DNA of 43,168 bases, filler included, from Chthonomonadaceae bacterium (GCA_035650735.1; 2 parts of 2 records of this genome joined end to end with filler, not necessarily neighbours in it); one strand, 5' to 3'; counted from the whole stretch's first letter, positions 17,151 through 35,921 are shown. The notes: generated by a model not told the origin, from the letters alone. A program made the numbers and translations.

Positions 17151-17170
17151 GTCAAACGCCTCGAAGAAGT

Positions 17171-18966: not shown

Positions 18967-19236
18967 AGATCTATCCGGCGTTTGACACTTATTGCCAAGA
19001 AAGGCGGAATCGCCAGAGGACATGACCAGGATTGCCGTCTTTTTCACTGTAGCGCGGAGACGACATTCGATAGGCTGTGAGGGCCATCGCAGAAGGTGGG
19101 GCGCCTATCTAATTGAAAGCCAACATGCCTAGCGGTGAGTAGATTAATGTGTATAGTAGGCCTTCTTGTCTGACACTCAGACGGCCTTTTTGTGCTGGCT
19201 AATTGTATCGAGTGGGCGCTTGCCCTGCATAAGACC

Positions 19237-19377: not shown

Positions 19378-19755
19378 TATTAGCGAAAAATTCCGGTTAT
19401 GTATGTGAAGCGCACTACTTGCCCCTTAGTTCCCTTCCTCACTAATCCGGCACTGGCCCTAGCCTTATCTCTATCGCCAGCGTAGTTTGCCACCGTGTAC
19501 TTGAGATAAGTCTTTCTTTTGCGGTCAGGCGCTGTCTTTAAAACGCCTCTATTCACCCTCCTTGTTATCGGGGAGTAGCCAATGCCCTCCAACGCCTACC
19601 AATCGCCTGAGGCGCCCGCATCGCGCATTGCTCCAATGGGCGCAGGGTGCGGCGAATGGGCGGAGCGTAGATCATTCGGATACTACGGTTAGCCGTCTGC
19701 CAGAACCAAAGCCAATCCTTGCTTGGGCTCTTCCAGTCGACGGAAAGAAAAGGCC

Positions 19756-21387
19756 ATGTCCAAGCTCTTTTGCGAGGTTATCGGCTGTGGCGAGCGCGCC
19801 TCGTTTGTGCGCATCGCCGAAGGCAGCGGTATTCTGGAAGAATATCTTTGTGCCTTTTGCCATCGCCAGTTGCTGGGACGTTCTGCCGATGACGCGATCT
19901 GCTATGCCCCTTTGCAGGCTTTCGACTCCTTGGTGGAGCGCTGCTTCTGGGCCGAGGATGCCCTGGCAGGCGACACCACAGACAGGGCAGCTCCTCAGCT
20001 GCTGCCCGCCTCCCCCACCACGCAGCCACTACGTTCCCATCCAGGGGCGGAGCCTCCTCTGCAAGCCCGCAACCGCCAGATGGCCGCCATCCACGCCATG
20101 TGCGCCTCTCTGTCAAGCACCCTGGATCTCGACCAGTGCCTGCACCGCATTCTCACAGTCTGTGTCCAAGCCATTGATGGGGTGGCCGGTTCTATCTACC
20201 TGTACCGACCCGGCGACAACACGCTCGTCTTCGCGCATGTCGTGGGTTCGAAGGAGCACGAACTTACCGGACAGACGATCCCTGCTGCCAGCGGCATAGC
20301 GGGGGCCGTATTCCAGTCCCAAGAGCCTCAGATTACCCACGCGCCGCGCCAAAATCCCCTCCATCGCCCCGATATCGGGGAGGGCATTGGTTTGGTGACG
20401 GAAAGCCTGGTAACTGTGCCGCTCAACTGTAAGGCCGGCAAGCCGGTGGGAGTGCTCCAGGTACTCAACAAGCAGCACGGGCAGTTTACCGCCGGCGATC
20501 TGGAGGTACTGGAGATTGTGGCCTCGATTGCCGCTATGGCCATAGAGACCCGGCAGTTGCATCAGGACTTGAAATTGGCCGCTGTGGCGCGCGCTTTAGG
20601 CGATCTCAGCCATGACATCAAGAACAAGGTAGCCCTGATCCCGCTGGCGATGGACACACTCAATCTCATGCTGGAGGCCATGTATACCAAAATCGATCAG
20701 ATCGCAGAGCATGCCCCCGCTCTCCTGGGCGCGGCCCTGCGGCAGACAATAGAGGAATCGCGGGGTTTCTACCCGGAGAGTTCCCAGATTATCCGAGACG
20801 AGGTCCAGGAGCTCTTCAGCTACACAGAGATGATTGCCAATGCCGTCAAAGGGATCGTCAGCGTGCCGCAGTTACGGCTGCATAAGCTAGAGGACATGCT
20901 AGAGAGGCCAATGCAGGCGCTGGCTCCTCTGGCGTTACAGGCAGGCGTCCATCTGATGGGGGATTTCGGAGCGATAGAGTTCTATTTTGATCCGTTTCTT
21001 GTAGAGCGGGCTGTGTATAACCTGATACATAACGCGATCTCGGCCACGCCGGAGGGGGGCACGGTGACCGTGCGGACCACGGCGTGCAAAGAGGGAACCT
21101 TCCCCGCAGGCAACTTTGTGCTGATTGAAGTCAACGATACCGGACAGGGAATGTCTGCGCTTCTCCTCCAGCGCCTTCTCAGCGGGGAAGCGACCAGTAC
21201 CAAGCTGGGGGGAACCGGTCTGGGAACACGTCTGATTTACAATGCGGTGGCGGCCCATCAGGGTCGCTTCGAGGGCACAAGTCAGGAAGGGGTTGGCAGC
21301 ACCTTCGGCTTGAGGTTGCCCCTTCTCTTCGAGCCATCCGAGCAGTCGGATCGGTCGGGGAGTTCTCCGACTCGCGCGGACGACTAG
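19756..21387 (+). CDS. GAF-domain sensor histidine kinase with a Cys-rich N-terminus
   Basis: GAF (GIAGAV..LVTVPL..VGVLQVLNK), H-box LSHDIKN, NLIHNA, DTGQG, GGTGLG. Confidence 0.88.
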   Translation: MSKLFCEVIGCGERASFVRIAEGSGILEEYLCAFCHRQLLGRSADDAICYAPLQAFDSLVERCFWAEDALAGDTTDRAAPQLLPASPTTQPLRSHPGAEPPLQARNRQMAAIHAMCASLSSTLDLDQCLHRILTVCVQAIDGVAGSIYLYRPGDNTLVFAHVVGSKEHELTGQTIPAASGIAGAVFQSQEPQITHAPRQNPLHRPDIGEGIGLVTESLVTVPLNCKAGKPVGVLQVLNKQHGQFTAGDLEVLEIVASIAAMAIETRQLHQDLKLAAVARALGDLSHDIKNKVALIPLAMDTLNLMLEAMYTKIDQIAEHAPALLGAALRQTIEESRGFYPESSQIIRDEVQELFSYTEMIANAVKGIVSVPQLRLHKLEDMLERPMQALAPLALQAGVHLMGDFGAIEFYFDPFLVERAVYNLIHNAISATPEGGTVTVRTTACKEGTFPAGNFVLIEVNDTGQGMSALLLQRLLSGEATSTKLGGTGLGTRLIYNAVAAHQGRFEGTSQEGVGSTFGLRLPLLFEPSEQSDRSGSSPTRADD

Positions 21388-21565
21388 GGCGGGGCGGGAG
21401 CGTTGCCTTGTCCGGTCGTTCCCTATGAGACGTGTGGCTCTGCTGTTCCGTGCCCGTCAGAGGCTGCACGGGCGCTTGGCAGACGAGGTAGGTTTCACCG
21501 GGGAATCTCAGCGGGAAGCCATGGCGCGTTTTGCAGGCCCAAGCCAGAAAGCCAGAGGTAGCATC

Positions 21566-23067
21566 ATGGAAGGCGAGTCCGAACTCTACGAGACCAAACG
21601 ACAGGCGCGCCAGCGGGCGCGCACTCCTGAGGCCATTCTAGAAAGCGAAGAGTGGCTGTTTACGACCTTGCAGAGCATTGGGGATGCGGTCATTGCCACC
21701 GATGCCCACGGCTTTGTTGTCTTCATGAACCCGGTGGCGGTACAGCTTACAGGCTGGAGCGAGGAAATGGCCTTGGGCAAAGACTGCCGTGAGGTCTTCC
21801 ACATCGTTAACGAAACCACCCGCCGGGAAACCGAAAGTCCGGTCACCAGGGTGCTGCGGGATGGGGTGATCTCGGGCTTAGCCAACCACACGCTTTGGAT
21901 TTCTCGGGATGGAACAGAGCGCAGCATTGATGACAGCGGCGCGCCCATTGGTAGACACCCCCAATCGTGTGGATACATCTCAAAAGCGTGCGCTCCATGA
22001 GAAGCGTCAACACGGTTGGGAGGGATTACCCGCCCATTCGGGATAAAGAGGGAACACTCCTCGGCATCGTGCTCATCTTCCGGGATATTACGGAGCGCCG
22101 GGATATGGAGCGGACCTTACAAGAGCAGCAGACCATCCTGCAAACCTTGTTTGACCATATCCCTGTCCTGGTCGCCTTTTTCGATACGACCGGGCAGTTA
22201 AAATGGGGCAATCGCGAATGGCAGCGCGTCCTCGGTTGGTCTCTGGAAGAGCTGCACAGCCCGCAGAGAATGGCGGAACTGACCCTCGACCTGGCCCAGC
22301 CGCAGGAACCGGGCGCCATTGCAAAATGGGCCGCGCCCGTCTGGCAAGACATTATGCTGCGGGACAAAGACGGACGCCTGCTCGCTATCTCGTGGGCCCA
22401 GGTTCGGCTCTCGGACGGAACCCGAATTGGCATCGGCCAGGACATCACGCATCGCAAAGCCCAGGAAACAGACATTCAGGCCCGCAATCAACGCTTAGAG
22501 CAGGCCATGCAAGAGACCGAGCACCGGGTTAAGAATAACCTGCATTCGGTGGCCGCGCTGTTGGATCTGCAGGTTCTGGCCCATCCCGAGGCCGTTCCGG
22601 TCCAGGAACTCACTCGGGTGCGTACACACGTCACGGCCCTGGCTGCTATCCACGATCTGCTTACGCAAGATGTCAAGGCAGGCAGGCTCCTCAACCTGAT
22701 CTCAGCCAGGGCAATGCTGCAAAAGCTGCTTCCTCTGCTACAGGAGACGGTTGGCGCGCCTCGGATCCAGTGGAGCGCTGAGGAGGTGTCTTTGCCCATC
22801 AAGCAGAGCATGTCGCTGGTGGTCGTAATCAATGAGTTGGTCACCAATGCCATCAAGCACGGAGGACAGAATGTGGAGTTGAAGCTTGCTCGGTCTGAGG
22901 ATCAGGTGACCCTGGAAGTCTGTGACGATGGACCTGGTTTTCCGCAAGCTTTCCCTCCGATTACCGCAGGCGGTTTTGGCCTGGAACAGGTAGGGTCAGC
23001 GCACCGGCAGGGGGGGACAGACACCGGCAGTAAAAACACTTTACCTAATACCTCAGGATGGTTGTAA
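21566..23067 (+). pseudogene. PAS-PAS HisKA_2 sensor kinase, interrupted by a MITE and truncated at the C-terminus
   Basis: TLQSIGDAVIATD PAS; removing 21950-22038 restores GAPIRDKEG; HRVKNNL, NELVTNAIKH, DDGPG; similarity ends after GFGLE (about 22990). Confidence 0.87.
21950..22030. mobile_element. MITE family B, copy 1 (81 bp, IS1-like ends)
   Basis: Imperfect 24-bp TIRs starting GGTA; perfect 8-bp TSD CGCCCATT (21942-21949, 22031-22038). Confidence 0.9.
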
Positions 23068-23072
23068 AGATT

Positions 23073-23154
23073 GGTAATCGCTCCCAACGGTGTGGACGTA
23101 TCTTCTCAGCAGCAGGCTGCGTGAGATTGATCCACACGGCTGGGAGTGTCTACC
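23073..23154. mobile_element. MITE family B, copy 2 (82 bp, opposite orientation, diverged core)
   Basis: Ends GGTAATCGCTCCCAA..TGGGAGTGTCTACC; flanked by TAAAGATT / TAAAGATC. Confidence 0.85.
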
Positions 23155-23414
23155 TAAAGATCAGACTTGCTGATAAAAAATCCTGCGAGAGAGGCACGGG
23201 CCGGAGAGAATGATGCTTGCCATATGCTGCTAGCGCCGACGGACCCGGTGGCTGAACCATTGTGGGGCATAGCGTCAGCGTCCTAATCTATAGAATTTAC
23301 CGTAAAAATTGATTCCGTGCCGCACTCTGGCAGGAATTCTCCGGCTGGCCGCGAATCCCTTCTGCATTCGGTGGTTTCTTTTGCCTGTATCACCTGACAG
23401 AAGGAGACAATCCC

Positions 23415-24038
23415 GTGTCCGAAGTAGCCGAACTCCTCGTCCTCCACCGCGCCCTCCTGGAGGGCGACCCTGCCGCCTCCGAACGCTTCGCCACTGCCTG
23501 TGGTCCTCGCCTGCGTGCTCTCCTCAAGCGCCGTCACGCAGCCATGCCCCGCGAACTCATTACCGATGCCGCTACAGACGCCATCCTGGCTTTTATCACG
23601 CACCCCGAGCGTTACCGGCCGGAAATGGGAAGCGTGTTCAATTACCTGCTCCATATCGCGGATAATCGTCTGCGAGATGAGTGGCGCAAACTGCGCCGCA
23701 GGCGCGAAATTTCGGTCGGGGGAAGCGTCGAACTGGCTCTGGTGGAAGCGAACTATCAGGGAGAGCGAGAAAGGCAGCCGATCACAGACGACCCGGACGC
23801 GCTGCCGCCCGAAGTGGAGGCGCTGCTTCACGACATCCTCCCCGACCCGTGCGACCGCCAGATATGGAATCTCATCTGCCAGGGACACGGCAGCACCGCC
23901 GAATTCGCCGCCCTCCTGGGAATCGCCTACCTGCCGCTTGAGGAGCAGCAGGCAGAGGTCAAGCGCCACCGCGACCGCATCGTGAAGCGCATTCAACGCC
24001 GCCGTCAGGAGTTTCGGAGACTACTTTTATGCGAATGA
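23415..24038 (+). CDS. ECF/sigma70-like RNA polymerase sigma factor
   Basis: Region 2-like (GDPAA..DAATDAIL..YLLHIADNRLRDEWRK) and region 4-like (DRQIWNL..STAEFAALLG..VKRHRDR); AAGGAG RBS. Confidence 0.78.
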   Translation: MSEVAELLVLHRALLEGDPAASERFATACGPRLRALLKRRHAAMPRELITDAATDAILAFITHPERYRPEMGSVFNYLLHIADNRLRDEWRKLRRRREISVGGSVELALVEANYQGERERQPITDDPDALPPEVEALLHDILPDPCDRQIWNLICQGHGSTAEFAALLGIAYLPLEEQQAEVKRHRDRIVKRIQRRRQEFRRLLLCE

Positions 24039-24469
24039 ACCCGGAGGCCCAAGCACGTCGGTTTCGCGCCCAACTGGTGCGCCGTGCCATTGAAACCGAT
24101 GCCCCGCTGCTGGCCGCTATCCTCGACCGTTATTCCCGCGCCGAAGGAATGGACTGGGCCGCGCTCGCCCAATCGCTTGACTGCACGGTGGACTCCCTGA
24201 ACCGCGTCGCGCTCTGCCGCCTACCCCGCCCGGACCGATTCGTGGAGGACGTGCGCGATATCGCTGGCGATTATGCCGACCCCGACCGCCTGGCGCCTCT
24301 GCTGCGCCGGTTGCAAGTGCTCGACGCTTTTGCGGCCCATTCCGCTGTCGAAACGGCTACGCCCGCCGCCGATCAGATGCTGCTGGCGGCGCGCGACCGG
24401 GAGGAAGGCACGGCAGAAGAGGAGCCGCCCGTCCAGGAAAATCCATCCACAGAGGCCAACCATGCCTGA
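24035..24469 (+). CDS. Hypothetical HTH-like protein (candidate repressor/anti-sigma)
   Basis: ATGA overlap with the sigma stop; GMDWAALAQSLDCTVDSLNRVAL HTH-like helix pair; LLAARD and an acidic tail. Confidence 0.75.
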   Translation: MNPEAQARRFRAQLVRRAIETDAPLLAAILDRYSRAEGMDWAALAQSLDCTVDSLNRVALCRLPRPDRFVEDVRDIAGDYADPDRLAPLLRRLQVLDAFAAHSAVETATPAADQMLLAARDREEGTAEEEPPVQENPSTEANHA

Positions 24470-25196
24470 GTCCCGTCTTACTGCCGCCCGCCTGCGCGCC
24501 GACGCCCAGGCCCTTCCCGACGTCCGGCTCGATATCGAGGCCGTGCTGCCCTGGCTCTATCCTGCCGCCTGCGTGCGCCTGCCCGAACTGCGTATCTCGA
24601 AGCTGCGCGACTGGCTCTGGCGGCACCAGGCCCTTATTCCCCCCGGCCTCACCGCCTGCCGGGACCGCCGTCTGCGCGGAGGCGTGGTCGCCTGGCGCGG
24701 GTTCGGCCTGCTATTTGCCGACCGGGACGATACCGAGGACGAGCAGCGCTTCACCCTCGCCCACGAAGCCGCCCACTATCTGCGCGATCATCTCTATCCG
24801 CGCTGCGACCTGCTGCGCCGCTTCGGCCCGGCGATACAGCCGGTATTAGACGGCCTGCGCCCGCCGACCCGCGAGGAGCGGATAGACGCGCTGCTTGCCC
24901 ATGCCTCGCTCACCTTCCACACTCACCTGTTGGAACGCGACGTCGCCCCCGATCCATCCCTCGATGCCCTGGAAGCCGACGCTGACGCCTTCGCCTGCGA
25001 GATACTGGCTCCTATCGCCGCCCTGGAGGCCCGATTTCCCTCTCTCTCCGCCGATGAAAATACGGTTCGCGAAGTGCAGGCCGCCCTCTGCGCCGATTAC
25101 CGTCTGCCGCCAAAACCTGCCCTTGCCTATGCGCGCGCGTTCGTGGCGGAACGCGGCGCTCCCGTTACCCTGTTGCACCGCCTGAGCCTGGCCTGA
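24462..25196 (+). CDS. ImmA/IrrE-family zinc metallopeptidase
   Basis: EQRFTLAHEAAHY and LEADADAFACEILAP motifs; start overlaps the upstream gene. Confidence 0.88.
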   Translation: MPESRLTAARLRADAQALPDVRLDIEAVLPWLYPAACVRLPELRISKLRDWLWRHQALIPPGLTACRDRRLRGGVVAWRGFGLLFADRDDTEDEQRFTLAHEAAHYLRDHLYPRCDLLRRFGPAIQPVLDGLRPPTREERIDALLAHASLTFHTHLLERDVAPDPSLDALEADADAFACEILAPIAALEARFPSLSADENTVREVQAALCADYRLPPKPALAYARAFVAERGAPVTLLHRLSLA

Positions 25197-25370
25197 ACAC
25201 CACAAAAAAATTGACGCCCGCACGTCGAGCTTCGCCCATGCACAGCGAAGAATCCATGCCATAAGCCGCAGAGTCCGACTTGCGCCCACGCGGGAGATAG
25301 AGGAACTTTCCCTTCAGATGAAGGGAAAGGCCCGCCCGGGCTCATGCGGGAAATAGCGAAAGGAGAGGCC

Positions 25371-26564
25371 ATGTCCGATAACGCAGCCCAGCTGCCAACG
25401 TCGGATGCGTTTGCTGAAGCCTTCGGCGAGCCGATCAAGCAGGTGCTTGACCTGAACACCTGGTGCCAGGGGGCCGATCTCGCCTCGCTCTACCCGGCGC
25501 TGCGGCAGATGGTGGCCCAGAGCGTGGAGCAGGAGCGGCGGGTGCGCAACCCGATCCGCGCACAGGTTTTCCCACGCATTCGGCAGGGCATCAACGCGGC
25601 TGCGCCCAAAAGCGCGGGCGTCTACCAGATGGACGAGAAGCAGATCGAGCTGGTCCATCGCGGCTTGCTGTTCAACGGCGGAACCGAGTGCTGCGACGGA
25701 ACGGTGGTCGGCCACAACTCGCTGGTGCTGTCCGTCTACCAGATAGGCATGGCGCTGGTCGCCTATCAAGGCAGTTGCGGCACCTGGGTACATCGGCTCT
25801 ACCGACACGATATGTACGCCCAATTTGCTGATCCCATCGAGGAGACGCTGGCCTTGCTGCGGAAACGCCAACAGCGCGAACCGGATAACGCCGAGGCGCC
25901 GCGCGATCCGCTCACGCGCCTGATACGCCGCGCCCTGATGGATTGGGCTGAGCGGGCCATCCTCACCCGCGTTTCCAAAATGCTCTGGCGCATGGGGCAC
26001 GGGCATCCGATCCCCTACAGCCTGCTCCTGCCGACAACGGACGCGCTGGTAGAGGACAGCGTTGCCGTGCTGCGGGAGCTTATCCTGGAGCACAAGCGGT
26101 TCGTCTTCGTCAGCAGCGAACCCAGCGACCGCTTTCTGCTCACGCTCGGCAACGCGCTGCATCCGCTGGAGTTTGCGGTCGTGGAAACCCTGGAACACTC
26201 GCTGAGCGACGCTATGCTACACCGCCTGGCGGCACAGGGAGGCCATCAACAGGCCCTACAGCGGATAGGGGCGTGCGTGCGGGAAGTGCGCTCGGAGGTC
26301 GTGACCGGCGTCTACCGGGCCTCGCTCCATGCGCCCGCCCGCGTCTTCTATGCGCACAAAGATTTTGCGTGCGAGGCGGCGGCCATCGCCATGGCCGATT
26401 CGGTCTTGCAGCCTCATCGCGGCTTTCCGATGCTGATTGACCTGGCCGACATCGTCTGCGGCAACACCTTCGACTGCGGCACGTTCCTGGGAACCATTCA
26501 CGATGCCTATGCCGCCGCCGGTGAGCCGATCCGCTACCTCGGTGAGCGGGAGACGAGAAGCTAA
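25371..26564 (+). CDS. Divergent NurA-like (RNase H-fold) nuclease
   Basis: CCDGT plus beta-hairpin (NurA A-x-D-G-S motif); C-terminal GFPMLIDLAD (NurA GYP..L..AH/D); upstream of HerA; AGGAG RBS. Confidence 0.68.
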   Translation: MSDNAAQLPTSDAFAEAFGEPIKQVLDLNTWCQGADLASLYPALRQMVAQSVEQERRVRNPIRAQVFPRIRQGINAAAPKSAGVYQMDEKQIELVHRGLLFNGGTECCDGTVVGHNSLVLSVYQIGMALVAYQGSCGTWVHRLYRHDMYAQFADPIEETLALLRKRQQREPDNAEAPRDPLTRLIRRALMDWAERAILTRVSKMLWRMGHGHPIPYSLLLPTTDALVEDSVAVLRELILEHKRFVFVSSEPSDRFLLTLGNALHPLEFAVVETLEHSLSDAMLHRLAAQGGHQQALQRIGACVREVRSEVVTGVYRASLHAPARVFYAHKDFACEAAAIAMADSVLQPHRGFPMLIDLADIVCGNTFDCGTFLGTIHDAYAAAGEPIRYLGERETRS

Positions 26565-26638
26565 AAGGGCCAAACGCTCCCATCACCTGGCTGCAAAATC
26601 TAGTCGTTAGCCCATAAGCAAACCAGGGATATCTAAAT

Positions 26639-26701
26639 CGTAGTTTCGTCCGCGAGGACGGTTGGCCGTAGGCCACCCAGACGGGTACTTTTAGTGCCCG
26701 G
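26639..26701. repeat. Short structured intergenic repeat, similar to 5875-5942
   Basis: Shared CGTCCGC.AGGACGGTTGGC..CAGACGGG..GCCCGGC core. Confidence 0.55.
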
Positions 26702-26765
26702 CTCCGGGTGCATTATGTGCCTATCTTTGGTGAACGGGAAACGAGAACTTGAGGAAGAAACGAAA

Positions 26766-28625
26766 ATGCGACTCGAAGACGCCGATAATAGAGAACTGCC
26801 GGAGGCTCCGGACGACATCGCGCAGCGGTTTCCGGAGGAGGCGGTCGTACAGATTCGAGAGGATATTTCCAGATTGGGCGGTCCCTACGTTCCTCCTGCC
26901 GACCGCGAGGGCTCGGTGGGCGTCACCATGTTTGACACGCCCACCTCCGATGACGATACGATTCCCATTCTGCTGCCCCGGCAAAACATCGGCCTGCTGC
27001 CTTCCCAGGCTGCCGTCCGTATCAAGAGCGCCGATGGGCGAGTCTATCTCGGCGTGGTGGTGCGCGGGCCGTTTGCGCTGCCGGACGGTCTGCGGGCCGA
27101 TGCGCCCCCGATTGTGGCGACGGCCATTCGCGGCGGCGTGTTTCTGCCGGAGTATCACGGCCTGGTCATCGTAGAGATCGCGGGCGAGGAGCGCAACGGC
27201 AGCCTTCAGCCGCACCGCTTCCGTCCGCTGCCCAACAGTCCCGTCTGGGTTCTCTCGGACGAGGAGGTACAGGATTTCCTCCGGACGGGCGGGAACGTGC
27301 GGCTGGGCATGGCCTACGGGCACGATAATCTGGAGATCGCCTTCCCCGCCAACGACAAGTCCGTCCTGCCGCGCCATACGGGCATCCTCGGCACCACGGG
27401 CGGCGGCAAGTCTACTACGGTCGCCAATCTCATCTGCCAGCTTCAGGCGGCGGGCGTCGCCGTTATTCTGCTGGACACGGAGGGTGAGTACACCGTCATC
27501 AATGAACCGACCGACGACCCGAAGATGATGCAGGCGCTTGCTGAACGAGGCCGCCAGCCGCAGGGCGTGGAGGACACCCACCTCTACTACCTCGTCGGGC
27601 GGCAGAGCGCGAACCCGTTCCATCCCAAACGCCTGCCCTTCTCCCCCGCCTTCTCTAATATCTCTCCCTATGCCGCGCTGGAGATTTTCGACTTAAACGA
27701 GGCGCAGGAAGAGCGGTTCCAGAAGGCGATCAGCGTCACGGTGCGCGCCCTGGACGAGCTCAAAATCTGGACGGAGGCGGATCTGAAGTTTGTCAAGGAG
27801 GAGATGGACGAGTTCGACGCGGGCTACCCGAAGATGCGCCTCTCCCACCTCTACGATGTCACCCGCACCGTTGCCGATCTGCTCCAGCATGGGGCGCGCT
27901 CACCCTACCCGGTGCTCCTCTCGCCGGAGTTCCGCAGCAAGGAGGCCGAGTTCGACCGGCTGCTGAAAGAGGCGACAAAGGACGAGTCGAAGCGCTGGGA
28001 TAGCTGGCGCAAAGTGCAGGGTAAGCTCGGACGCATCGAGCGCCTGAACCTGTTCGATAATCGCAACGCACCGCCGCTAGATTACAAGAAGCTGCTCGCG
28101 CCGGGACAGGTCTCCATCATAGACCTGTCGGATACCGACTCGACGCTGGTCAACAACCTCATCATCAGCGACCTGCTGCGCGGCGTCCAGAAGGCGCAGG
28201 AGGAGGCATATCAGCAGGCGACGACGCTGGGGCGCGATCCAACGCCGGTCGTCCTCATTATCGAGGAGGCCCATGAGTTTCTTTCCGCCCAACGCATCGG
28301 CAAAATGCCGATCCTGCATCAGCAGGTGGAGCGCATCGCCAAGCGCGGGCGCAAGCGCTGGCTGGGCCTGGCCTTTGTGACGCAGCTTCCGCAACACCTG
28401 CCCGATGCCATCCTCGGCCTGGTGAACAACTTTATCCTGCACAAGATCGGCGATGCCAACGTTATCAGCCGCCTGAAACGGAGCATCGGCAGCGTGGATG
28501 AGTCACTCTGGACGCGCCTGCCGCGCCTGGCGCCGGGGCAGGCGGTCGTCTCCGTCGCCAGCCTCGCCCGCCCGATGCTGACCGCCATGGACCCCGCGCC
28601 CTGCCAACTTAAAATGGTGCGTTAG
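26766..28625 (+). CDS. herA: HerA/FtsK-family ATPase (HAS-barrel + DUF87)
   Basis: Walker A GTTGGGKST, LLDTEGEY, Walker B IIEEAHEF, IAKRGRK..LAFVTQ.P, L.PGQA. Confidence 0.9.
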   Translation: MRLEDADNRELPEAPDDIAQRFPEEAVVQIREDISRLGGPYVPPADREGSVGVTMFDTPTSDDDTIPILLPRQNIGLLPSQAAVRIKSADGRVYLGVVVRGPFALPDGLRADAPPIVATAIRGGVFLPEYHGLVIVEIAGEERNGSLQPHRFRPLPNSPVWVLSDEEVQDFLRTGGNVRLGMAYGHDNLEIAFPANDKSVLPRHTGILGTTGGGKSTTVANLICQLQAAGVAVILLDTEGEYTVINEPTDDPKMMQALAERGRQPQGVEDTHLYYLVGRQSANPFHPKRLPFSPAFSNISPYAALEIFDLNEAQEERFQKAISVTVRALDELKIWTEADLKFVKEEMDEFDAGYPKMRLSHLYDVTRTVADLLQHGARSPYPVLLSPEFRSKEAEFDRLLKEATKDESKRWDSWRKVQGKLGRIERLNLFDNRNAPPLDYKKLLAPGQVSIIDLSDTDSTLVNNLIISDLLRGVQKAQEEAYQQATTLGRDPTPVVLIIEEAHEFLSAQRIGKMPILHQQVERIAKRGRKRWLGLAFVTQLPQHLPDAILGLVNNFILHKIGDANVISRLKRSIGSVDESLWTRLPRLAPGQAVVSVASLARPMLTAMDPAPCQLKMVR

Positions 28626-28638
28626 GAGAGGAACCGCT

Positions 28639-29873
28639 ATGATCACTGCCGTTCTGACCGGTGACAACCATCTGGGCGCCAACTACGCCCGATTCCGACC
28701 GGAGCGATTGGAACAGCGCCGTAAACGCTTGCAGCAGGCCTTTGAGCAGGTCGTGGAGGCAGCCATCGAACGTAAGGTAGACCTCTCTTCCTGCACGCGG
28801 GCGACCTGTTCGACCGTCCCGACCCGCGCAACGACGAGCGCCGTTTCGTTGCGCGCCAGTTGCGCCGTCTGCGCGAGGCCGGGATTGCTGTCTTCGCCAT
28901 CGCGGGCAACCACGACAGCCCGCGCAGCTACAGCTATGGCGGCGGGGCCGTACCGCAGGAGGAGGCCGACGCGCTGGGGGCGATCTGCCTCTTCCGCAAC
29001 ACCGAGGAACTCCGATCGCAGGAAGTGACGATTCGCGGGCAGCATGTCCGCATCTGGGGCATGAGCGCCGACTTCAACCGCCCGGACGATGTCTGCCCGC
29101 TGGAGAGCCTGACGCTCGAGCGCGCCGCGCCCGACACGATCCAGATCGTCCTGCTGCACTACAACGTTGAGGGGTTGGGCACCCCGTTTGCTGAAGAGCC
29201 AACCCTCTCGCGCTGCAACCTGGAGCGCCTGCAGGCCGACGCGATCTGCGTGGGGCACCTGCATAGGCGGATGCAGACCTATCTGGACGGCGGCGCGCTG
29301 CTGGTCAACCCCGGCGCCACGGAGCATATAGATTTCGGCGAGGAGGGCCTGGAGTGCGGCTTTACCCTGCTCCAACTCGCGCCGGGCCGCGCGGAGGCCG
29401 AGCACATCGGCATTCCAACCCAGCCCATGCGGACACTGGAGATCGAGCTGACGCCCGAATTCGCGCAGTCGCGCACGGTCGAGCAGGAGGCGGAAGCGGC
29501 AACGCAGTGGATGGAGGCCGTTCGCGCCCGGATAACCGCGGTTTCGCACCAGGATCAGTTGCTCCGCGTGCGGTTTGTGGGACAGATTCCGCGCGGCCTG
29601 TTCCATGCTCTCGATCTAGAAGAGCTCCTGCGGCACGGCAATGCGGAGAACTTCCACTGCCAGTTCGATAGGGAACGAATGCTCGTGTACGACCCGGACA
29701 GCGACGTACCGTTGGGCTACGGCGTCAGCTTCGATGTTGCCGAGGAACTGCAAAACGTGGCGAACGGACTGCGTGGGCAGCATAACGACGACCCAGTTGA
29801 ACAGGAACTCTACGCCCTGGCTGCCGAGCAGGTCCGCCTCGCGTTCGGCCGCCTGACGAAAGGAGCGCGGTAA
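28639..29873 (+). pseudogene. Mre11/SbcD-family phosphoesterase nuclease with a +2 frameshift at about 28783-28788
   Basis: GDNHLG, (after correction) DLFLHAGDLFD, IAGNHD, LLHY, VGHLH, NPGA.E; an extra CT in CTCTCT splits the gene. Confidence 0.88.
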
Positions 29874-29875
29874 CG

Positions 29876-32800
29876 ATGATCCTGCTGCACCGCCTGACGG
29901 TCCAGAACTTCAAGCAACTGGCCGACGTCACGCTCCATTTTCCGGAAACCGGAACGATCCTGATCGAAGGGCACAACGAGGCCGGCAAGTCGTCGCTATT
30001 TGAGGCCGTCTATTTCGCCCTCTACGGCGATTCCCTGATCTCCGACCGCGACTATAAAATCAGCGACATGAAGCGCCACGGCGCCGAGTTGATGCACGTC
30101 GAGCTGGAGTTCTCCATCAACGCGCGCCGCTTTCGTGTCGAGCGGACGGTGCGCCAGAACCAGAAGGCCCATCTTACCTGCCCGCTGCCGGATGGCGGCG
30201 ACGAGACTATCACCGGGGCAGACATAGTGAACAGGCGCATCCAGGAAGAGATCGCCCTCAGCGCGAACGCCCTGTTGAATACCTGCTTTGTCGAGCAGAA
30301 GCGGCTGGATCAACTTGAAAGCCTCGATCCGCAGGTACGCCGGAAGACCATCAACGAGCTGCTCAATATCGAGGCGCTGAACGCCCTGGAGAGGGAATTC
30401 AAGCCGACGCAGGAAGACAGCGAGCGCATTCAGCAGGCATGGCGGCGTGTGGAGGTTGCCGAACTGGACGCAAAGCTCCCTGAATTAGAGCATGAGGAGC
30501 GGACGGCCTATCGCTGTATGCTGTATCGGCAGGCGCAGGTGTGCCAGGAGCAGAGCCGGGCCATTGCCGCCGAGATACGTGCCGCGCAGGAAGAACAGGG
30601 ACAGATTACGGCGCGATTGGCGCAAATTGAGGCGGATCTAAAGCGCGGCGCGCAGTATCAGGCGCAATTGAGCGCTTTGCAAAACGATCTGCCCCTGCGC
30701 GCAGAGGCATGGCAGCGCGCCCTCCGGGAACATGCAGACGCGGCGGAGGAGGAGCAGCGCCTGCGGGCACTGCAAGCCGGGCTGGCGGAACGCCGAGAGA
30801 CGCTGGAACAGTATCGGCAGTGGGAGTCCGACCTGCGGAAGCTGGAGGCGTTGGAAGCGGAGGCAAAGGAGCTTGCCGACGAACTCAAGGGCCGTCAGGA
30901 CGAGGTTGCAGCCTACGATGCCCTGTTCGCTGAGTGGCAGGCCGTCGCAGAAGAAGTGCGCCAACAGGAAGCGCAGCAGGCGCAGGAACAGCAGGCGCTG
31001 GAAGCGGCCCAGGCCGCATGGGAGGCACGCCAGCGGGCGATCCGGCGGGATACCCGCCTGGCCCTGCTGCTCCAGCAGGCCGACGCCCATGCGCACGCTC
31101 TGCGCGAGGCAGCGACGCTGGCGCAAGAACTCCGTACAGCTCAGGCGCACGCCGATGCGCTGCCGGCAGAGCAAGAGCGACTTACCGGGCTTGAGAACGC
31201 GGAACAGTGGCTAAACCGGCGAAAGAAAGAGGCGGATCGGCTGGTAGATGTCCGGGACAAGCTGCTAGCCGCCCGACGCCGCAAGGAAGAGCACGACACT
31301 ACTCAGGCGCAGGTCAGTGCGCAGGAACAGGCGCTGCGCCAACTCGAAGCGGAGATATCGCAGAGCCGGGCGCGCTGGCAGGAGGCGCGGATCACTCTCG
31401 AAAGCGTAGAGCAGCGCGCCGCGCTGCTGGAGTGGGTGGAGGCGGCGGAACGCTGTGCGGAAGCCGAACCGAACGCGGGCAAACTGGCCGATTTGACGGT
31501 CCGGCGCGCGCAGGCGGAGCAGCAGTGGAAGGCTGCCTCTGCGCAGGCCGCGGCGGCGGGGAAGCCGATGGTTGCCGGATTAGCGTCGGCAGGGGGCGGC
31601 CTGGCGCTGAGCGCGGCGGCGTTCGCAACGCCCTTCCTTGTGCCGCTGCTCCTTCTCGGCCTATTGTTGGCGGCAGCGGGAACGGGACTGGCGCTCCGGG
31701 CGAGGCGGGCCGTTGTTGCGGCACGCACCGCAGAAGAGGCCGCCCGCAGTGCGTGTCATGCGCTGGAGGGAGAGCGCAGCGCCCTGGAAGGGCTGGCGAA
31801 GGCGCATGCCGACCAATTAGAACGCCGCAAGGCCGAGGAGGAAGCGCGCCGCAGGGCACTTCTGGCGCTCAACCTGGCTATTCCTGAGTCGCCGGAGGCG
31901 GCGCGCAAGCAGGCTGCCGCGCTGCCCGCAACGGCGCTTGTCGAGGCGAAACAGGCCGAAGAGGCTGCGAAGTCGGCGCTGGATAGCTTGAATAACCAGC
32001 GCCAGATACTGGAAGGGCAAATCCAGGGCGAGAAGGAGCGGCTGGCAAAGCAGAATATCCAGCAGGTCGTCGCGGCCATTGGGACGTTGCAGGACCAAGA
32101 GGCGCAGACGCTCCAGGCGTTGGAGGAAGCGGATCGGACTCTGCCGCCCCTGCTGGAATCGCTTTCCATCGGCGAGGATCCGGAGGCGATACAGGAAGCG
32201 CTGCAGCAGGCCCGAAACGTAGTCGCCGCCTACGACGCCGATGCGGCACGCCTCCCCACGCTGCGCCGGCAGGAAGCAGAGAAACGCGCCCAGGCGCAAC
32301 GGGCGCAGGAGCAGACGCAGGCTATCGCAATCGAACTTGGCCTGCCGGAAACGACGATAACGGCCTGGCAATCTGCCGCCATCGAAGAGCAGCAGGCGCT
32401 GCAAGCCGCGCGCCGAGAGGCCGGGGATGAGGACTTGTATTCTCAATGGAAGGCAGCGGATCAGGCGCTGCAGGCGACGAGCAAGAGCCTGGCAATACTC
32501 CAGCATAAACAGGCGGAGCGCCGTAAGCAACTGGATGCCACCGACCGGACGCAGTTGCTTGCGCAGGTCGCGGAGACCGAACAGGCCCTGCACGCCAATG
32601 CTGAGGCGCAGCGGCCCCTACATTCCGTCCGCGCGGCCCTACGTGCCGCCGAATTGCCGGACATCTCCACGAACTTGCAAGTCCAGCTCTCTTTGCTCCA
32701 GAAAGAACTCTCGAATGACGAGGCGGAGGCCGCCAGACTGCCGCAGGCTCGGGAGCGCGTTCAACAGTGCGCCCGCATCATTACGCAGAAAGCCGAGGAG

Positions 32801-33775
32801 TTCAGCCAGGCATGGAACCAGCATCTCCGGGCGTATGCTCCTCCCGTCACTCCCGACACGGCTCAGGAGCGCCTGTCGGAAGTTTCTCGCGAGATTGACG
32901 GAAAGCTCCAGGCGCTAGACGTGCCGGGGCTGCGGCAGAAACAGCAAACCCTACAGGACCGGCACACGCAGATCGGGCAGGAGAATGCGGCGCGTGATCT
33001 GCGCCAGACGCAGCTTGCGGATCAGGCGCGGACGTGGCTGCAAGAGCTTGGAATAGACGCGGAGGAGGAGCGCTCTCCACTGGAGCGTTTCCCGGAACTT
33101 CAGCAGGCACCACAGCGCTCGGCGGAGGCGTGGGCAGAGGAGCATGAGCGGCGGAGCAGCGCGGTGCATGATACCCGCACCCGACGGCGCACCCTGGCCG
33201 AAACGTTGGGGCTGGACGATACTCCGCTCGACTTGCCGACGGAAAGACAAGCCTTGAGGGAGGCACAGAAAGCTCTGGACGTTAAGCGTCGCGCAGAGCG
33301 GATCGTCAAAACCACGCGCCAATCCATCGTGGATCGCGTTATGCCTATGACCCTGCACAACGTCCGCTACCTGCTTCCGGCGCTGACGATGGGACGCTAT
33401 CAGGATCTGGAATGGCAGGGTGAGGCCGATTCGCTGCTCATCTTCGACAGCCGCGCCGGAGCCTTCCAGAAGAAGCGGGTCTTCTCCGGTGGGGCCAAGG
33501 ACCAGATTTCGCTGGCGCTGCGGCTGGGTTTTGCGCTGGCGACGCTGCCGACCGGCAAGACGACGCGCCCTTACTGGCTATTCCTGGACGAGCCGCTGAG
33601 CAGCTTCGACCGGGAGCGGACGCGGGCGCTGGTGGATCTGCTGACCAGAGGGACGGTCCGCCAGCATTTCCATCAGGTCTTCCTGGTCTCCCACAGCGAG
33701 TCCTTCGATCCAAAGCTGTTCGACTACCGCATCCGCATGGCCAACGGCTCTGTCGTAGAAAGCACGCTCCCGTAA
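29876..33775 (+). CDS. Rad50/SbcC-like SMC ATPase with a central hydrophobic hairpin
   Basis: Walker A GHNEAGKSS, Q-loop FVEQ, long coiled coil, signature FSGG, Walker B FLDEP, H-loop VSH. Confidence 0.93.
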   Translation: MILLHRLTVQNFKQLADVTLHFPETGTILIEGHNEAGKSSLFEAVYFALYGDSLISDRDYKISDMKRHGAELMHVELEFSINARRFRVERTVRQNQKAHLTCPLPDGGDETITGADIVNRRIQEEIALSANALLNTCFVEQKRLDQLESLDPQVRRKTINELLNIEALNALEREFKPTQEDSERIQQAWRRVEVAELDAKLPELEHEERTAYRCMLYRQAQVCQEQSRAIAAEIRAAQEEQGQITARLAQIEADLKRGAQYQAQLSALQNDLPLRAEAWQRALREHADAAEEEQRLRALQAGLAERRETLEQYRQWESDLRKLEALEAEAKELADELKGRQDEVAAYDALFAEWQAVAEEVRQQEAQQAQEQQALEAAQAAWEARQRAIRRDTRLALLLQQADAHAHALREAATLAQELRTAQAHADALPAEQERLTGLENAEQWLNRRKKEADRLVDVRDKLLAARRRKEEHDTTQAQVSAQEQALRQLEAEISQSRARWQEARITLESVEQRAALLEWVEAAERCAEAEPNAGKLADLTVRRAQAEQQWKAASAQAAAAGKPMVAGLASAGGGLALSAAAFATPFLVPLLLLGLLLAAAGTGLALRARRAVVAARTAEEAARSACHALEGERSALEGLAKAHADQLERRKAEEEARRRALLALNLAIPESPEAARKQAAALPATALVEAKQAEEAAKSALDSLNNQRQILEGQIQGEKERLAKQNIQQVVAAIGTLQDQEAQTLQALEEADRTLPPLLESLSIGEDPEAIQEALQQARNVVAAYDADAARLPTLRRQEAEKRAQAQRAQEQTQAIAIELGLPETTITAWQSAAIEEQQALQAARREAGDEDLYSQWKAADQALQATSKSLAILQHKQAERRKQLDATDRTQLLAQVAETEQALHANAEAQRPLHSVRAALRAAELPDISTNLQVQLSLLQKELSNDEAEAARLPQARERVQQCARIITQKAEEFSQAWNQHLRAYAPPVTPDTAQERLSEVSREIDGKLQALDVPGLRQKQQTLQDRHTQIGQENAARDLRQTQLADQARTWLQELGIDAEEERSPLERFPELQQAPQRSAEAWAEEHERRSSAVHDTRTRRRTLAETLGLDDTPLDLPTERQALREAQKALDVKRRAERIVKTTRQSIVDRVMPMTLHNVRYLLPALTMGRYQDLEWQGEADSLLIFDSRAGAFQKKRVFSGGAKDQISLALRLGFALATLPTGKTTRPYWLFLDEPLSSFDRERTRALVDLLTRGTVRQHFHQVFLVSHSESFDPKLFDYRIRMANGSVVESTLP

Positions 33776-33934
33776 CTCGCCCTATTCCTATAGGCAGAGT
33801 AGAGGGGCGAACGGGGAACAACCTCTGCCCGGCAGTCGTCTCCCGTGAGGGCAAGTTGCCCAACACTTCCTTTGCTCAATGCTCTCTGAGACGCCCTGAG
33901 GGGCGTTCTTGTCCAAAGAAAATAGGAGATGACC

Positions 33935-34234
33935 ATGAAACTGACCGTCCTGCTGCTTGGCGCCGTGCTCGGATTGGCACAGATTGCTGTTCCGGTCAGC
34001 GCGCAGAAGCACCACCACGCGCACAAACGCCACCAAACTCATCCCAAGAACGAGATTAGCAAGCTCCGGAAAGCGCGCCAGACCAACCACACGGTCCGCC
34101 AGGTTACGGTTGATCCCAAGAAGAGCCCCGGCAAGCATCTCGACAACCTATCCAAGAACATCAATCACGAGATCAATCGGGAGTCCAAGGACGTCAATCA
34201 TTTCTTCCAGGGTAAGCACAAGCACAAGAAGTAG
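33935..34234 (+). CDS. Small secreted His/Lys-rich protein
   Basis: Signal peptide MKLTVLLLGAVLGLAQIAVPVSA, then KHHHAHKRHQ; AGGAG RBS (alternative start 33929). Confidence 0.75.
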   Translation: MKLTVLLLGAVLGLAQIAVPVSAQKHHHAHKRHQTHPKNEISKLRKARQTNHTVRQVTVDPKKSPGKHLDNLSKNINHEINRESKDVNHFFQGKHKHKK

Positions 34235-34475
34235 TAGTCTATTCAGCTCCCCTGCCCTCCGTGTGGACAGGAGGGAAACCGACCGGACCGCCTGGCCCCT
34301 GAGGTCTGGCTGTGGCCTGTAGGGAAAATACGGGCTCTTGCTTTACGCCCGCTTGACGTTGGCGGCTTACCCGCTCCCTACAGGCTCCTCTGCGTCCTGG
34401 CAGATAAACAGAGGCAGGAAGCAACGCGCCGGTGTCGAATACAAAGCGCATCCTGCCCAAAGGAAGCGAGCGCCT

Positions 34476-35921
34476 ATGGCTGACCCGAGCGAGCCCAAGC
34501 CTGACCAACCTTCAGAGACGCAGAGCCAGGATCCCTTCCAGACGACGTTCCATCAGGCGACCGTAGGCTTAGCGCACATGGCTCCGGATGGACGCTGGCT
34601 GCGGGTCAATGACACCCTGTGCCAACTCGTCGGCTACACCCGCGAGGAACTCCAGTCTCGCACCTTCCATGACATCACCCATCCCGACGACCTCGAAGCT
34701 ACCATCGAATATATGCGCCGTGCGCTCCTGGGTGAACTGCCCACCTTTTCTCTGGAGAAGCGCTATCTGCACAAACACGGAGCGCCCGTCTGGGTGCAGG
34801 TGAGCCTGTCGCTGGTTCGGGATGCGCTGGGCCACCCCAAGCATTTCAACGTTGTCGTTCAGGATATTTCCCAACGCAAGCGCGCCGAGGAGGCGCTGCG
34901 GGAGAGTGAAGAGCGCTACCGCCTGCTGGTCGAAGGGGTCGAGGACTATGCCATTGTCATGCTAGACCCGCAAGGGCGCGTGGTCAGTTGGAACCGGGGC
35001 GCGGAACGGATCACGGGCTACTCCCAAAACGAGATCCTGGGCCAGTCGGTGGCGGTCTTCTTCCCGCCCGAAGAGCGCTGGCGGGACGAGCCGGAACGGG
35101 AGCTCGACCAGGCGCGGGCTCAGGGCCGGGTGGAGGATGAGCGCTGGCATGTGCGCAAAGATGGCAGCCGCTTCTGGGCTTCCGGGGTGACCACCACGTT
35201 GCGGGACGCGTCTGGCGCTGTGCGCGGTTTCGCCAAGATCCTGCGCGATCTGACCCAACGTCGGCAAGCTCAGGAACAACAAGCCCGCACGCAAGAGCGG
35301 ATCGAGGCGCTCAATGCGCAGCTCCAACTGGCGATGACGGAGACCCACCATCGAGTCAAGAACAATCTCCAACTGATCGCTTCGCTGTTGGACATGCAGA
35401 CGATAGACGAGCCGTTGGCCGTTTCGGTCAAGGAGCTTAAGCGGCTCAGCCTGCATATTCGTACGCTGGCGGCCGTGCATGATCTGTTGACGGAGGCGGC
35501 TAGGGAAGGAGCCCAGAAGCAGACGGTTTCGGCCCAGGAAGTCTTAGATCGGCTGCTGCCCTTGCTCCGGCAGATGGCCGGCGCGCAGCGGCTCGAATTC
35601 GTGGTGGAGGATGCTCGGCTCTCGGTCAGGCAGGGCACGTCGCTGGCACTGGTGGTCAGCGAGTTGGTCAGCAACGCGCTCAAGCATGGTCACGGGGGCG
35701 TGGAGGTTACCTTTGCCGTGCAGGGGCAGGAGGCGGTTTTGGAGGTCTGCGATGATGGGCCGGGCTTTCCAGAAGGCTTCGATGCCCAGGCTGCTGCCCA
35801 CACGGGATTGGACCTGGTGGAGAACCTGACCCGGCTGGATCTGAAGGGGCAGGTGCGGTACGAAAACCGGGCTCAAGGGGGTGGACGGGTGGCGGTCACG
35901 ATGCGCCTGGTGGAGAGCTAG
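34476..35921 (+). CDS. PAS-PAS HisKA_2 sensor histidine kinase
   Basis: Two PAS/PAC domains (ITHPDD..EKRY; SWNRGAERITGY..RKDGSRFW), HHRVKNNL, SELVSNALKH, DDGPG. Confidence 0.92.
   Translation: MADPSEPKPDQPSETQSQDPFQTTFHQATVGLAHMAPDGRWLRVNDTLCQLVGYTREELQSRTFHDITHPDDLEATIEYMRRALLGELPTFSLEKRYLHKHGAPVWVQVSLSLVRDALGHPKHFNVVVQDISQRKRAEEALRESEERYRLLVEGVEDYAIVMLDPQGRVVSWNRGAERITGYSQNEILGQSVAVFFPPEERWRDEPERELDQARAQGRVEDERWHVRKDGSRFWASGVTTTLRDASGAVRGFAKILRDLTQRRQAQEQQARTQERIEALNAQLQLAMTETHHRVKNNLQLIASLLDMQTIDEPLAVSVKELKRLSLHIRTLAAVHDLLTEAAREGAQKQTVSAQEVLDRLLPLLRQMAGAQRLEFVVEDARLSVRQGTSLALVVSELVSNALKHGHGGVEVTFAVQGQEAVLEVCDDGPGFPEGFDAQAAAHTGLDLVENLTRLDLKGQVRYENRAQGGGRVAVTMRLVES

Follow-up and report, generated by a model that had tools for sequence, protein, structure and literature searches.

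The sigmaE-RseA pair is an extracytoplasmic function (ECF) sigma/anti-sigma switch that is released by proteolysis, and TdpAB is a phosphorothioate-sensing defence pair for which we know of no sigma or protease control. A second point of reference is provided by M78 (ImmA/IrrE/CapP-like) peptidases. In the cyclic oligonucleotide-based antiphage signalling system (CBASS), CapP cuts CapH, a repressor, at F82-R83 with single-stranded DNA bound, and the substitution R83A blocks the cut; the accessible part of that report also counts 15 CapH-CapP fusions and mentions, without analysis, 24 CBASS systems that carry capH, capP and a sigma factor of the sigma-70 family (10.1101/2022.04.27.489752). Both IrrE and CapP sense single-stranded DNA, and IrrE/DdrO governs repair genes in Deinococcus, as described in the available portion of a further report (10.64898/2026.05.16.725639). 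Likewise, according to the part of the source at hand, the DdvS/DdvA pair controls an island of CBASS genes and genes of a CRISPR system (PMC11506125). Among DNA-end enzymes, the accessible description of SbcE (YhaN) from Bacillus subtilis is of an SbcC-like protein that has no CxxC motif, that is hydrophobic and insoluble in its central domain, and that is paired with SbcF, which is of the Mre11 type (PMC2811018). The subject here is a seven-gene cassette at positions 23415-33775 of a 43,168-nucleotide stretch of DNA (the window, meaning the whole stretch that was analysed) from a bacterium placed in the Chthonomonadaceae, phylum Armatimonadota, by the named records of its nearest relatives.

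In order, the cassette encodes an ECF-like sigma factor, a small partner protein, an M78 zinc peptidase, a NurA-fold nuclease-like protein, a HerA-type ATPase, an Mre11/SbcD-like phosphoesterase and a Rad50/SbcC-like ATPase of the structural maintenance of chromosomes (SMC) class. The reading we favour, with a probability of roughly 0.55, is that it is an accessory, horizontally spread cassette in which a protease-released sigma/anti-sigma switch is joined to a NurA-HerA DNA degrader that chiefly destroys invading DNA.

The analysis shows the gene families and folds, the synteny, the promoter-like motifs with their covariation, and the frameshift; what the signal is, that cleavage takes place, how the events follow one another and what the cassette does for the cell we infer as follows. 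The small protein would keep its private ECF-like sigma inactive by binding the sigma-2 domain. A signal such as single-stranded DNA, arising from damage or infection, would activate the peptidase, by analogy with CapP and IrrE, and the peptidase would then cut the small protein, putatively at L-x-A-A|R-D. The freed sigma would fire two private promoters. One, upstream of nurA, would drive nurA-herA-mre11-rad50; the other, within the linker codons of the sigma gene, would drive the small-protein and peptidase genes and so reset the switch. The NurA-fold nuclease and the HerA translocase would thread DNA and degrade it from its ends, and in this lineage the hook-less Rad50-like ATPase, with its hydrophobic apex, and the Mre11 nuclease would join as an end-binding, SbcE/F-like pair.

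A conserved unit of regulatory trio, NurA-like gene and herA

Relatives of the NurA-like protein were found at 216 places in more than ten phyla, and all counts out of 80 given below refer to the best 80 of these places, with one genome per species. The loci belong to Armatimonadota, Chloroflexota, Acidobacteriota, Nitrospirota, Planctomycetota, Verrucomicrobiota, Deinococcota (Calidithermus) and other phyla. Searches by tblastn with the window's proteins detect HerA in 77/80 loci, the peptidase in 74/80, the sigma factor in 66/80 and the small protein in 56/80, and the gene order of the window is kept in all loci except one that is rearranged. Another six loci encode a protein of 209 residues where the sigma would be expected, and the one tested, in L024, is a divergent member of the same sigma family (hhalign E 4e-33). 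Of the 65 loci with enough flank on both sides, 61 contain the sigma-position gene, peptidase, NurA-like gene and HerA together. What is conserved is a unit of five or six genes, made up of the regulatory trio, the NurA-like gene and HerA and, usually, a DNA methylase.

The Mre11 and Rad50-like genes follow HerA in 5/80 loci, all in Armatimonadota, and are absent from the other 75; the pair is an addition restricted to one lineage. Scanning metagenomes with Mre11 brings in four more contigs of the seven-gene form, of which one is truncated at its end. The scan also yields a contig of 55 kb whose sequence is identical to that of the window, and two that have the Mre11/Rad50-like pair alone (L097 10001-14649 and L098 1965-7249). 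A radical-SAM gene and a beta-lactamase-fold gene border the pair in L097, in housekeeping surroundings, with no cassette within 10 kb upstream. The seven-gene form is seen only in Armatimonadota and in metagenome contigs. The seven genes appear to move together, because the flanks of the seven-gene loci have no gene clusters in common except Cas3 in two of them (918 flanking ORFs, that is, open reading frames, were clustered and the cluster representatives scanned against Pfam).

A sequence-only reading of this DNA had proposed a self-contained inducible module of seven genes. A self-contained module that processes DNA under the control of a switch agrees with the synteny, the two promoter-like sites and the CapP-like peptidase, and its size is to be corrected: five genes, not seven, make up the conserved unit. 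What that reading named as a refutation, rare co-occurrence of the regulatory triad and the nuclease/ATPase quartet elsewhere, is half borne out: the quartet occurs in only 5/80 loci and a few metagenome contigs, and what is conserved is the trio with the NurA-like gene and HerA.

Within the window, the seven genes are on the plus strand and, as that reading described, are co-oriented and overlapping or nearly abutting. The sigma gene (23415-24038, 207 aa) has its stop inside the next gene, 24029-24469, which encodes the small protein (146 aa from 24029; 24035 is another possible start). This gene overlaps that of the peptidase (24462-25196, 244 aa) by 8 nt, 24462 being the likely peptidase start. 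Wider gaps precede the NurA-like gene (25344-26564, likely start 25371, 397 aa), by about 150-175 nt, and herA (26766-28625), by about 200 nt; HerA has 619 aa when read from the ATG at 26766, in an ORF that opens with a GTG at 26694. Only 13 nt separate herA from mre11 (28639-29873), and 2 nt separate mre11 from the Rad50-like gene (29876-33775, 1299 aa).

The sigma factor is recognised by its region 2 (PF04542, E 2.2e-7, 31 bits against a cut-off of 24), and a profile of 62 homologues matches solved ECF sigmas (2q1z at E 2.2e-6, also 4nqw and 1or7). TIGR02937 aligns with residues 22-194 at 32.6 bits, below its cut-off of 42.9, and the Pfam models of region 4 give no match; a C-terminal block, GER.T..YA..LGI, is conserved across the 62 sigma sequences. 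The peptidase matches PF06114 (E 3.4e-6, 27.3 bits against 22) and PADLOC capP (1.3e-8). Its nearest solved relative by profile is CapP (7t5t, 2.7e-4), with IrrE (3dte) at 0.012. All of these Pfam, PADLOC and profile matches are confined to the HExxH region, where H101, E102 and H105 are invariant across 47 peptidase sequences, and do not reach the C-terminal HTH and GAF domains or the cysteine switch that characterise CapP. PF04542, PF06114 with capP, and PF01935 thus confirm the earlier assignments of an ECF-like sigma, an HExxH peptidase and HerA.

The small partner protein matches no family in Pfam, NCBIfam or PADLOC and has no detectable similarity to any solved chain. In an alignment of 55 sequences, the segment LAxxLGC....L.RLALC.RPR is shared in the N-terminal part, L-x-A-A-R-D is conserved towards the C-terminus, and the tail is acidic. 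The gene had been called helix-turn-helix (HTH)-like from sequence, and that label is reduced to a weak lead: HipB is found at E 0.24-0.37, HTH_3 and HTH_26 clusters are reached at an Atlas score of 0.76, and no HTH family is significant in Pfam or in a PDB profile search. When sigma and small protein are modelled together, with alignments for both chains, the complex scores 0.86, against 0.00 for the best of three controls; on calibration, 0.86 is attained by 116 of 157 solved complexes and by 2 of 215 mismatched pairs. The runs have at least 98% of contacts in common, with a predicted local distance difference test (pLDDT) value of at least 73 for the partner. In the modelled interface, sigma residues 17-62 meet partner residues 5-27 and 59-80, the conserved LALC.RP segment packs on sigma region 2, and the L-x-A-A-R-D motif falls outside. 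The prediction supports binding of the small protein to its cognate sigma.

An alternative role for this protein is that of a CapH-like DNA-binding repressor that occupies an operator until it is cleaved, with the sigma only amplifying the response afterwards. To the eye, the N-terminal half resembles an XRE-type HTH, and the HipB, HTH_3 and HTH_26 leads point the same way. Trios of capH, capP and sigma do exist, and in them CapH is described as a repressor in the accessible text (10.1101/2022.04.27.489752). At a locus in an Actinomycetota metagenome-assembled genome (L087 8656-9837), small protein and peptidase are encoded by a single 393-codon ORF, which may be an assembly error and which resembles the CapH-CapP fusions of Lau et al., so far as the available part of their report describes them. 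However, the HTH matches do not reach significance, the complex model places LALC.RP on sigma region 2 and not on DNA, and no conserved operator-like motif is found upstream of the sigma gene, where the top k-mers occur in at most 18 of 67 loci. Repression of the CapH type is doubtful, the least improbable of the alternatives considered here, and the modelled structure likens the product of gene 2 more to an anti-sigma that binds its sigma, and less to an HTH repressor of the classical kind.

Under the favoured sigma/anti-sigma switch, the position of the putative cut, before the conserved Arg of L-x-A-A-R-D, is suggested by the CapP precedent, in which the bond before R83 is cut and R83A blocks cleavage. 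By analogy with RseA and LexA, one may speculate that the predicted cut would leave an ssrA-like ...LAA end.

Two promoter-like sites provide the link between the switch and its targets. Before nurA, k-mer counts recover TGTCGAACTT in 29-37 of 69 regions, and in related loci this forms a bipartite element composed of TGTCGAACTT, 13-15 nt, and GGAATA or GTATAT. The corresponding regular expression has 83 matches in 2.63 Mb of locus sequence, of which 45 lie upstream of nurA (45/80 loci) and 34-35 fall within the sigma gene itself, beginning some 215-317 nt into it. The window's own two sites, both on the plus strand, are a lineage-specific form with an identical 14-nt spacer: CGTCGAACTG, 14 nt, GAACTATC within the sigma gene (23726-23757; C222:7520 in a scan of the bacterium's own genome) and CGTCGAGCTT, 14 nt, GAAGAATC upstream of nurA (25223-25254; C222:9017). 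Locus L017, in a genome of the same genus, has equal spacing and GAAGAATC before nurA.

The -10 type is concordant between the two sites of a locus in 24 of 27 classifiable loci. Spacers are also equal. The Fisher p of 3e-4, computed over loci that are related and not independent, overstates the support for covariation, and this overstatement weighs against the proposed switch. A further point on that side is that the internal -35 also encodes a conserved V-E-L, and a chance VEL-coding match occurs elsewhere in the genome. This V-E-L stands out in a linker, joining sigma regions 2 and 4, that varies in its other positions; identical third codon positions, together with the covarying -10, argue for selection on the DNA at the internal site, and a protein-level contribution to the conservation of the -35 may be present as well. 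A pattern built from the window's two sites finds only one further match in the 6.5 Mb genome, at C202:1033 and in coding frame. As a third promoter it was taken as chance, being inside a 378-codon ORF that reads GYVELAYA. General scans of 22900-34400 give 2 sigma-70 promoter-like sites, against 1.6 in shuffles, and 13 terminator-like sites, against 8.4 in shuffles, both counted as no excess. If the internal site is what it seems, a promoter within the sigma's own coding sequence that matches the nurA promoter in -10 and spacer is an unusual and testable regulatory layout.

Assignment of gene 4 depends on structure modelling. The NurA-like protein has no match in Pfam (at E 0.01, PF09376 included), NCBIfam or PADLOC. 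A first AlphaFold2 (AF2) model, from 26 sequences, had a pLDDT of 65.6 and no Foldseek match at E 0.001; it is superseded by a second model from 72 sequences, partly drawn from an exhaustive hidden Markov model search, with a pLDDT of 91.9. With this model, the first nine rows listed by Foldseek contain only NurA chains and the NurA-like TdpAB chain, led by 2ygk_A at E 3.7e-7. VIA, an independent all-against-representatives alignment, ranks 2ygk_B first (Z 17.6, 273 residues aligned, root-mean-square deviation 4.5), followed by 9x1l_G (14.4), 8wet_G (13.7), 7f6d_G (12.3) and 1zup_B (12.2), all of the NurA family; other folds, the EndoV and Argonaute PIWI domains, stay at Z 10.3 or less. The modelled protein has the NurA (RNase H-like) fold, and the NurA-like nuclease read from sequence is to that extent confirmed by the AF2 model, Foldseek and VIA.

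Three acidic residues are conserved in the family, D118 in 55, E203 in 68 and D352 in 72 of the 72 sequences, and all are present in the window's protein. D118 lies on the first strand of the model, and the three form a putative catalytic site on the basis of strand position and not of superposition. A profile link to canonical NurA is not seen: hhalign against the canonical NurA of the same genome gives a probability of 0.4, and a PDB profile search for a link to solved structures returned one match, at E 0.1, which was rejected as chance. The protein is NurA by fold, yet belongs to a separate sequence family, one that, at 50% identity, forms 551 clusters within a set of 1.84 billion representatives. 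HerA is more readily recognised (PF01935 1.1e-22, PF05872 6.3e-12, PADLOC HerA models to 2.4e-30) and has the Walker A motif GTTGGGKST; it adjoins the NurA-like gene in 77/80 loci, at 48-80% identity.

The Mre11 and Rad50-like genes

In the window, mre11 is broken. Its product matches Metallophos at E 1.7e-5 and archaeal Mre11 models of NCBIfam far below their cut-offs, and its two ORFs, 28639-29028 and 28860-29873, are in different frames. Relatives have VDLFLHAGDLFD in one frame; at about 28783-28788 the window reads CTCTCT where CTCT keeps the frame. A one-base deletion was considered and set aside, comparison with four relatives being better fitted by a CT duplication. The motifs DNH, GDLFD and GNHD are all encoded, and the frameshift falls between the first and the second, separating phosphoesterase motifs I and II. 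The same broken sequence, with no differing letters or gaps, is found in contigs of four runs from four studies, some of which may be the source of this DNA, and in a contig from the Joint Genome Institute (JGI). This recurrence argues that the break is real in this population and not an assembly error. Mre11 was thus correctly recognised from sequence as to its family, by Metallophos and the weak archaeal matches, and the gene itself is split. With mre11 a pseudogene, at most the five-gene core and the Rad50-like protein still work here.

That the whole cassette is an inactive remnant, with the frameshift marking the onset of decay and no gene mattering to the cell, would fit the fixation of the break in the four runs and the JGI contig and the absence of the methylase partner. 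This is quite unlikely: the six genes other than mre11 are full length and retain their catalytic and nucleotide-binding motifs, both promoter-like sites are retained, and five-gene forms without Mre11/Rad50 are the norm (75/80 loci).

The Rad50-like protein is identified by SMC_N (residues 4-1276, 43.2 bits against 40), by AAA_27 at its N-terminus (30.9 bits against 22) and by SbcC_Walker_B (residues 1200-1257), and it retains the Walker A motif GHNEAGKS, the signature FSGG and the Walker B motif LFLDEP. Archaeal Rad50 models of NCBIfam match its N-terminal part only, far below cut-off. No CxxC zinc hook occurs in its 1299 residues. At the expected position of the hook is a hydrophobic stretch of about 43 residues (approximately residues 565-607, encoded on the plus strand at 31568-31696), with a highest 19-residue Kyte-Doolittle mean of 2.27. 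Four homologues (L016, L017, L019, L028) also have no CxxC and a comparable hydrophobic stretch. The sequence-based name Rad50 is accordingly apt for the ATPase motifs and domains and inapt for the hook, and "archaeal-type" does not describe the set, given a NurA-like protein in a separate sequence family and a Rad50-like protein without a zinc hook.

Defence, repair and the genomic setting

The genes that accompany the cassette elsewhere are the principal guide to its role. An N6_N4 DNA methylase is present in 50/80 loci, in 44 of them co-oriented and just upstream of the sigma gene; the Armatimonadota loci are without it. Genes for Cas1, Cas2, Cas3, Cas6 or Cas7 occur in 21/80 loci and WYL regulators in 4/80. 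In the Ktedonobacteraceae loci L021-L025, cas1, in two ORFs, begins -1 to 143 nt after herA on the same strand, and in L023 and L024 cas2 follows cas1, as if in one operon with the cassette. Separately, where Mre11/Rad50 are missing, herA is often followed by a short ORF in the same orientation, which starts 13-200 nt after it; these ORFs do not cluster at E 1e-8.

The operon-like arrangement of cas1 and cas2 after herA, and the Cas3, Cas6 or Cas7 genes found downstream in other phyla, would suit a NurA-HerA core that serves CRISPR spacer acquisition or interference, making fragments or ends for Cas1-Cas2, and that does not act as a stand-alone system. Against this, 59/80 loci have no cas gene in the flank, none is found within the window's contig, and defence genes cluster for other reasons. 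Such a service role is the most improbable of the alternatives.

A more substantial alternative, rather unlikely in our estimation, is a damage-induced operon for double-strand-break repair, a bacterial counterpart of the archaeal resection set under an IrrE-like protease switch. All four archaeal resection enzyme types are present. The accessible reports on IrrE and CapP, with their single-stranded DNA sensing and the control of Deinococcus repair genes by IrrE/DdrO, could be read in this sense, as could the stand-alone Mre11/Rad50-like pair among housekeeping genes in L097. Bacillus SbcE, with its similar hook-less, hydrophobic centre, acts in break repair according to the available part of the source (PMC2811018). 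On the other side, distribution is patchy: the cassette is accessory, its NurA-like gene being present in 8 of 41 related genomes, the bacterium's own included. That genome already has a canonical NurA (C186:15178-16065; PF09376, 1.2e-31) and a second Mre11/Rad50-like pair (C11:31170-33565, 26-28% identity), and the cassette enzymes are therefore extra copies. Methylase and cas company in other phyla would be unexpected for repair genes, and mre11 has been lost here while the remaining genes are undecayed. Taken together, the methylase and cas neighbours, the patchy distribution and the separate housekeeping copies favour defence over repair.

Several further observations weigh against the favoured reading. 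The defence context is borrowed from relatives, because no methylase or cas gene is found beside the cassette in a Pfam scan of its neighbours in the window and its contig, and no clear copy of the cassette-type N6_N4 methylase is found in the bacterium's own genome. The NurA-like protein finds no match by tblastn (1e-5) in 72,556 plasmid and 50,697 phage records. PADLOC names no system at the locus, only generic HerA and SMC-type ATPase models. The complex score may partly be memory, because ECF sigma/anti-sigma complexes have already been solved, and the seven-gene form may be decaying, given its broken mre11.

A broader version of the defence reading can be put forward tentatively, with about the same low likelihood as the repair operon. 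The cassette would be a widespread inducible immune system in which a CapP-like peptidase cuts a new, soluble anti-sigma at L-x-A-A|R-D, maybe exposing the ssrA-like end; the sigma would have two targets and a built-in shut-off; a methylase would mark self DNA in most lineages; and the Armatimonadota form would instead employ the hook-less Rad50, with its hydrophobic and possibly membrane-inserted apex, alongside Mre11, so that the ends of linear DNA entering the cell are found. If defence is the role, the cassette is a common bacterial module and a possible nuclease-based defence that is listed in no catalogue.

The source of the window is a 6.5 Mb draft genome, 97.6% complete with 3.4% contamination. 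The window consists of contigs C221 (16,106 bases) and C222 (26,962 bases), linked through two N runs (16107-16206), and adjacency of the genes that flank about 16.1-16.2 kb is not established, because two contigs are joined there. The whole seven-gene locus lies within C222 (window 16207-43168). The surroundings had been described from sequence as an accessory region rich in insertion sequences and miniature inverted-repeat transposable elements (MITEs). Accessory it is, by the count in related genomes, and the richness comes down to one insertion sequence and one 37-nt repeat pair, neither flanking the cassette. The insertion sequence, of the ISL3 family, is a single copy at 17150-18987 with inverted ends of 67 nt that are 87% complementary; the transposase reading frame is divided between two ORFs that overlap (17290-18342 and 18177-18923). 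The MITE-like pair of 37-nt inverted repeats, 95% complementary and 168 nt apart, occupies 39041-39282, with an aminotransferase gene on one side and a gene for a nucleotidyl transferase on the other. A repeat search of the window found no repeats bordering the seven-gene locus.

Sensor histidine-kinase genes with PAS/GAF domains lie on both sides of the cassette (19723-23067 and 34338-35921), one with HisKA_2; in other loci no link of such genes to the cassette is seen. Further along, a 235-residue ORF at 42115-42822 has an ATLF metallopeptidase-like domain (PF07737, E 1.5e-7) and a weaker match to Peptidase_M90.

Comparison with known systems

The sequence-only reading did not know the combination as a described system, and that judgement stands: no published description was found in the literature, and there is no corresponding PADLOC system. 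In PADLOC-DB 2.0 the ATPases match HerA models, LmuB (1.1e-14), mad3, mad8 and DndH, and the other five proteins match only capP. The partner genes that would define Lamassu, Sir2-HerA, MADS or Dnd (LmuA, Sir2, other mad genes, DndF/G) are not found among the neighbours by Pfam. Table S1 of Lau et al., which concerns sigma-bearing capH/capP loci, may bear on the novelty of the trio. The comparisons that follow refer to the accessible parts of the cited reports.

CapH and CapP, which regulate CBASS and other immune operons, offer the closest regulatory parallel, an effector operon that opens with an M78 peptidase and, next to it, a small protein resembling a substrate, and the conserved A-R junction of the cassette recalls the F82-R83 cut site of CapH. 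The effector, in contrast, is NurA-HerA instead of CBASS; for the small protein no HTH reaches significance, and the model docks it on sigma and not on DNA; and two sigma-type promoter-like sites replace the logic of repressor and operator. The IrrE(PprI)/DdrO pair of Deinococcus and the ImmA/ImmR pairs of ICEBs1 and prophages share the peptidase superfamily and derepression by cleavage after DNA damage; unlike the proposed switch, they cleave a DNA-bound repressor, involve no sigma, and have repair or mobile-element genes as their regulons.

The sigmaE-RseA and DdvS/DdvA pairs resemble the cassette in having a private ECF-type sigma held by a partner, and DdvS/DdvA also controls defence genes. 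The cassette's predicted partner differs in being soluble and outside known anti-sigma families, its protease is of the M78 type and encoded in the operon, and one target promoter-like site is inside the sigma gene. If the switch works as proposed, it is a worked example of a sigma/anti-sigma pair opened by a CapP/IrrE-type protease, a design that the printed record, in the parts available, mentions only in passing, as the 24 CBASS loci with sigma.

Of the effector systems, the archaeal herA-mre11-rad50-nurA operon (PMC3326311, PMC12977600) has the same four enzyme types and a NurA that is a strong fold match. The NurA-like protein of the cassette nevertheless fails the Pfam NurA model and its Rad50-like protein has no zinc hook; the gene order is different, a regulatory trio and private promoter-like sites are added, and most cassettes are without Mre11/Rad50. 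TdpAB (PDB 8wet/8wfd) likewise sets a HerA-like hexamer and a NurA-like nuclease (fold Z 13.7) outside housekeeping repair, but no phosphorothioation genes lie near the cassette. The HerA/FtsK "capture" systems (PMC10853773, PMC12839542) also combine a HerA-clade translocase with a nuclease, often together with DNA-modification genes; the accessible text of these reports makes no mention of NurA or ImmA and describes no sigma/peptidase trio with HerA.

The SbcE(YhaN)/SbcF(YhaO) pair is a chromosomal repair pair, unlinked to NurA-HerA or a sigma switch in the available description (PMC2811018). In its described features it is nonetheless the counterpart of the cassette's hook-less Rad50-like protein, with a hydrophobic centre and an Mre11-type partner, and the N-terminal AAA_27 match belongs to the same likeness. 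If the likeness is sound, the hook-less Rad50 with its hydrophobic apex provides a second lineage in which to ask what an SbcE-type centre does.

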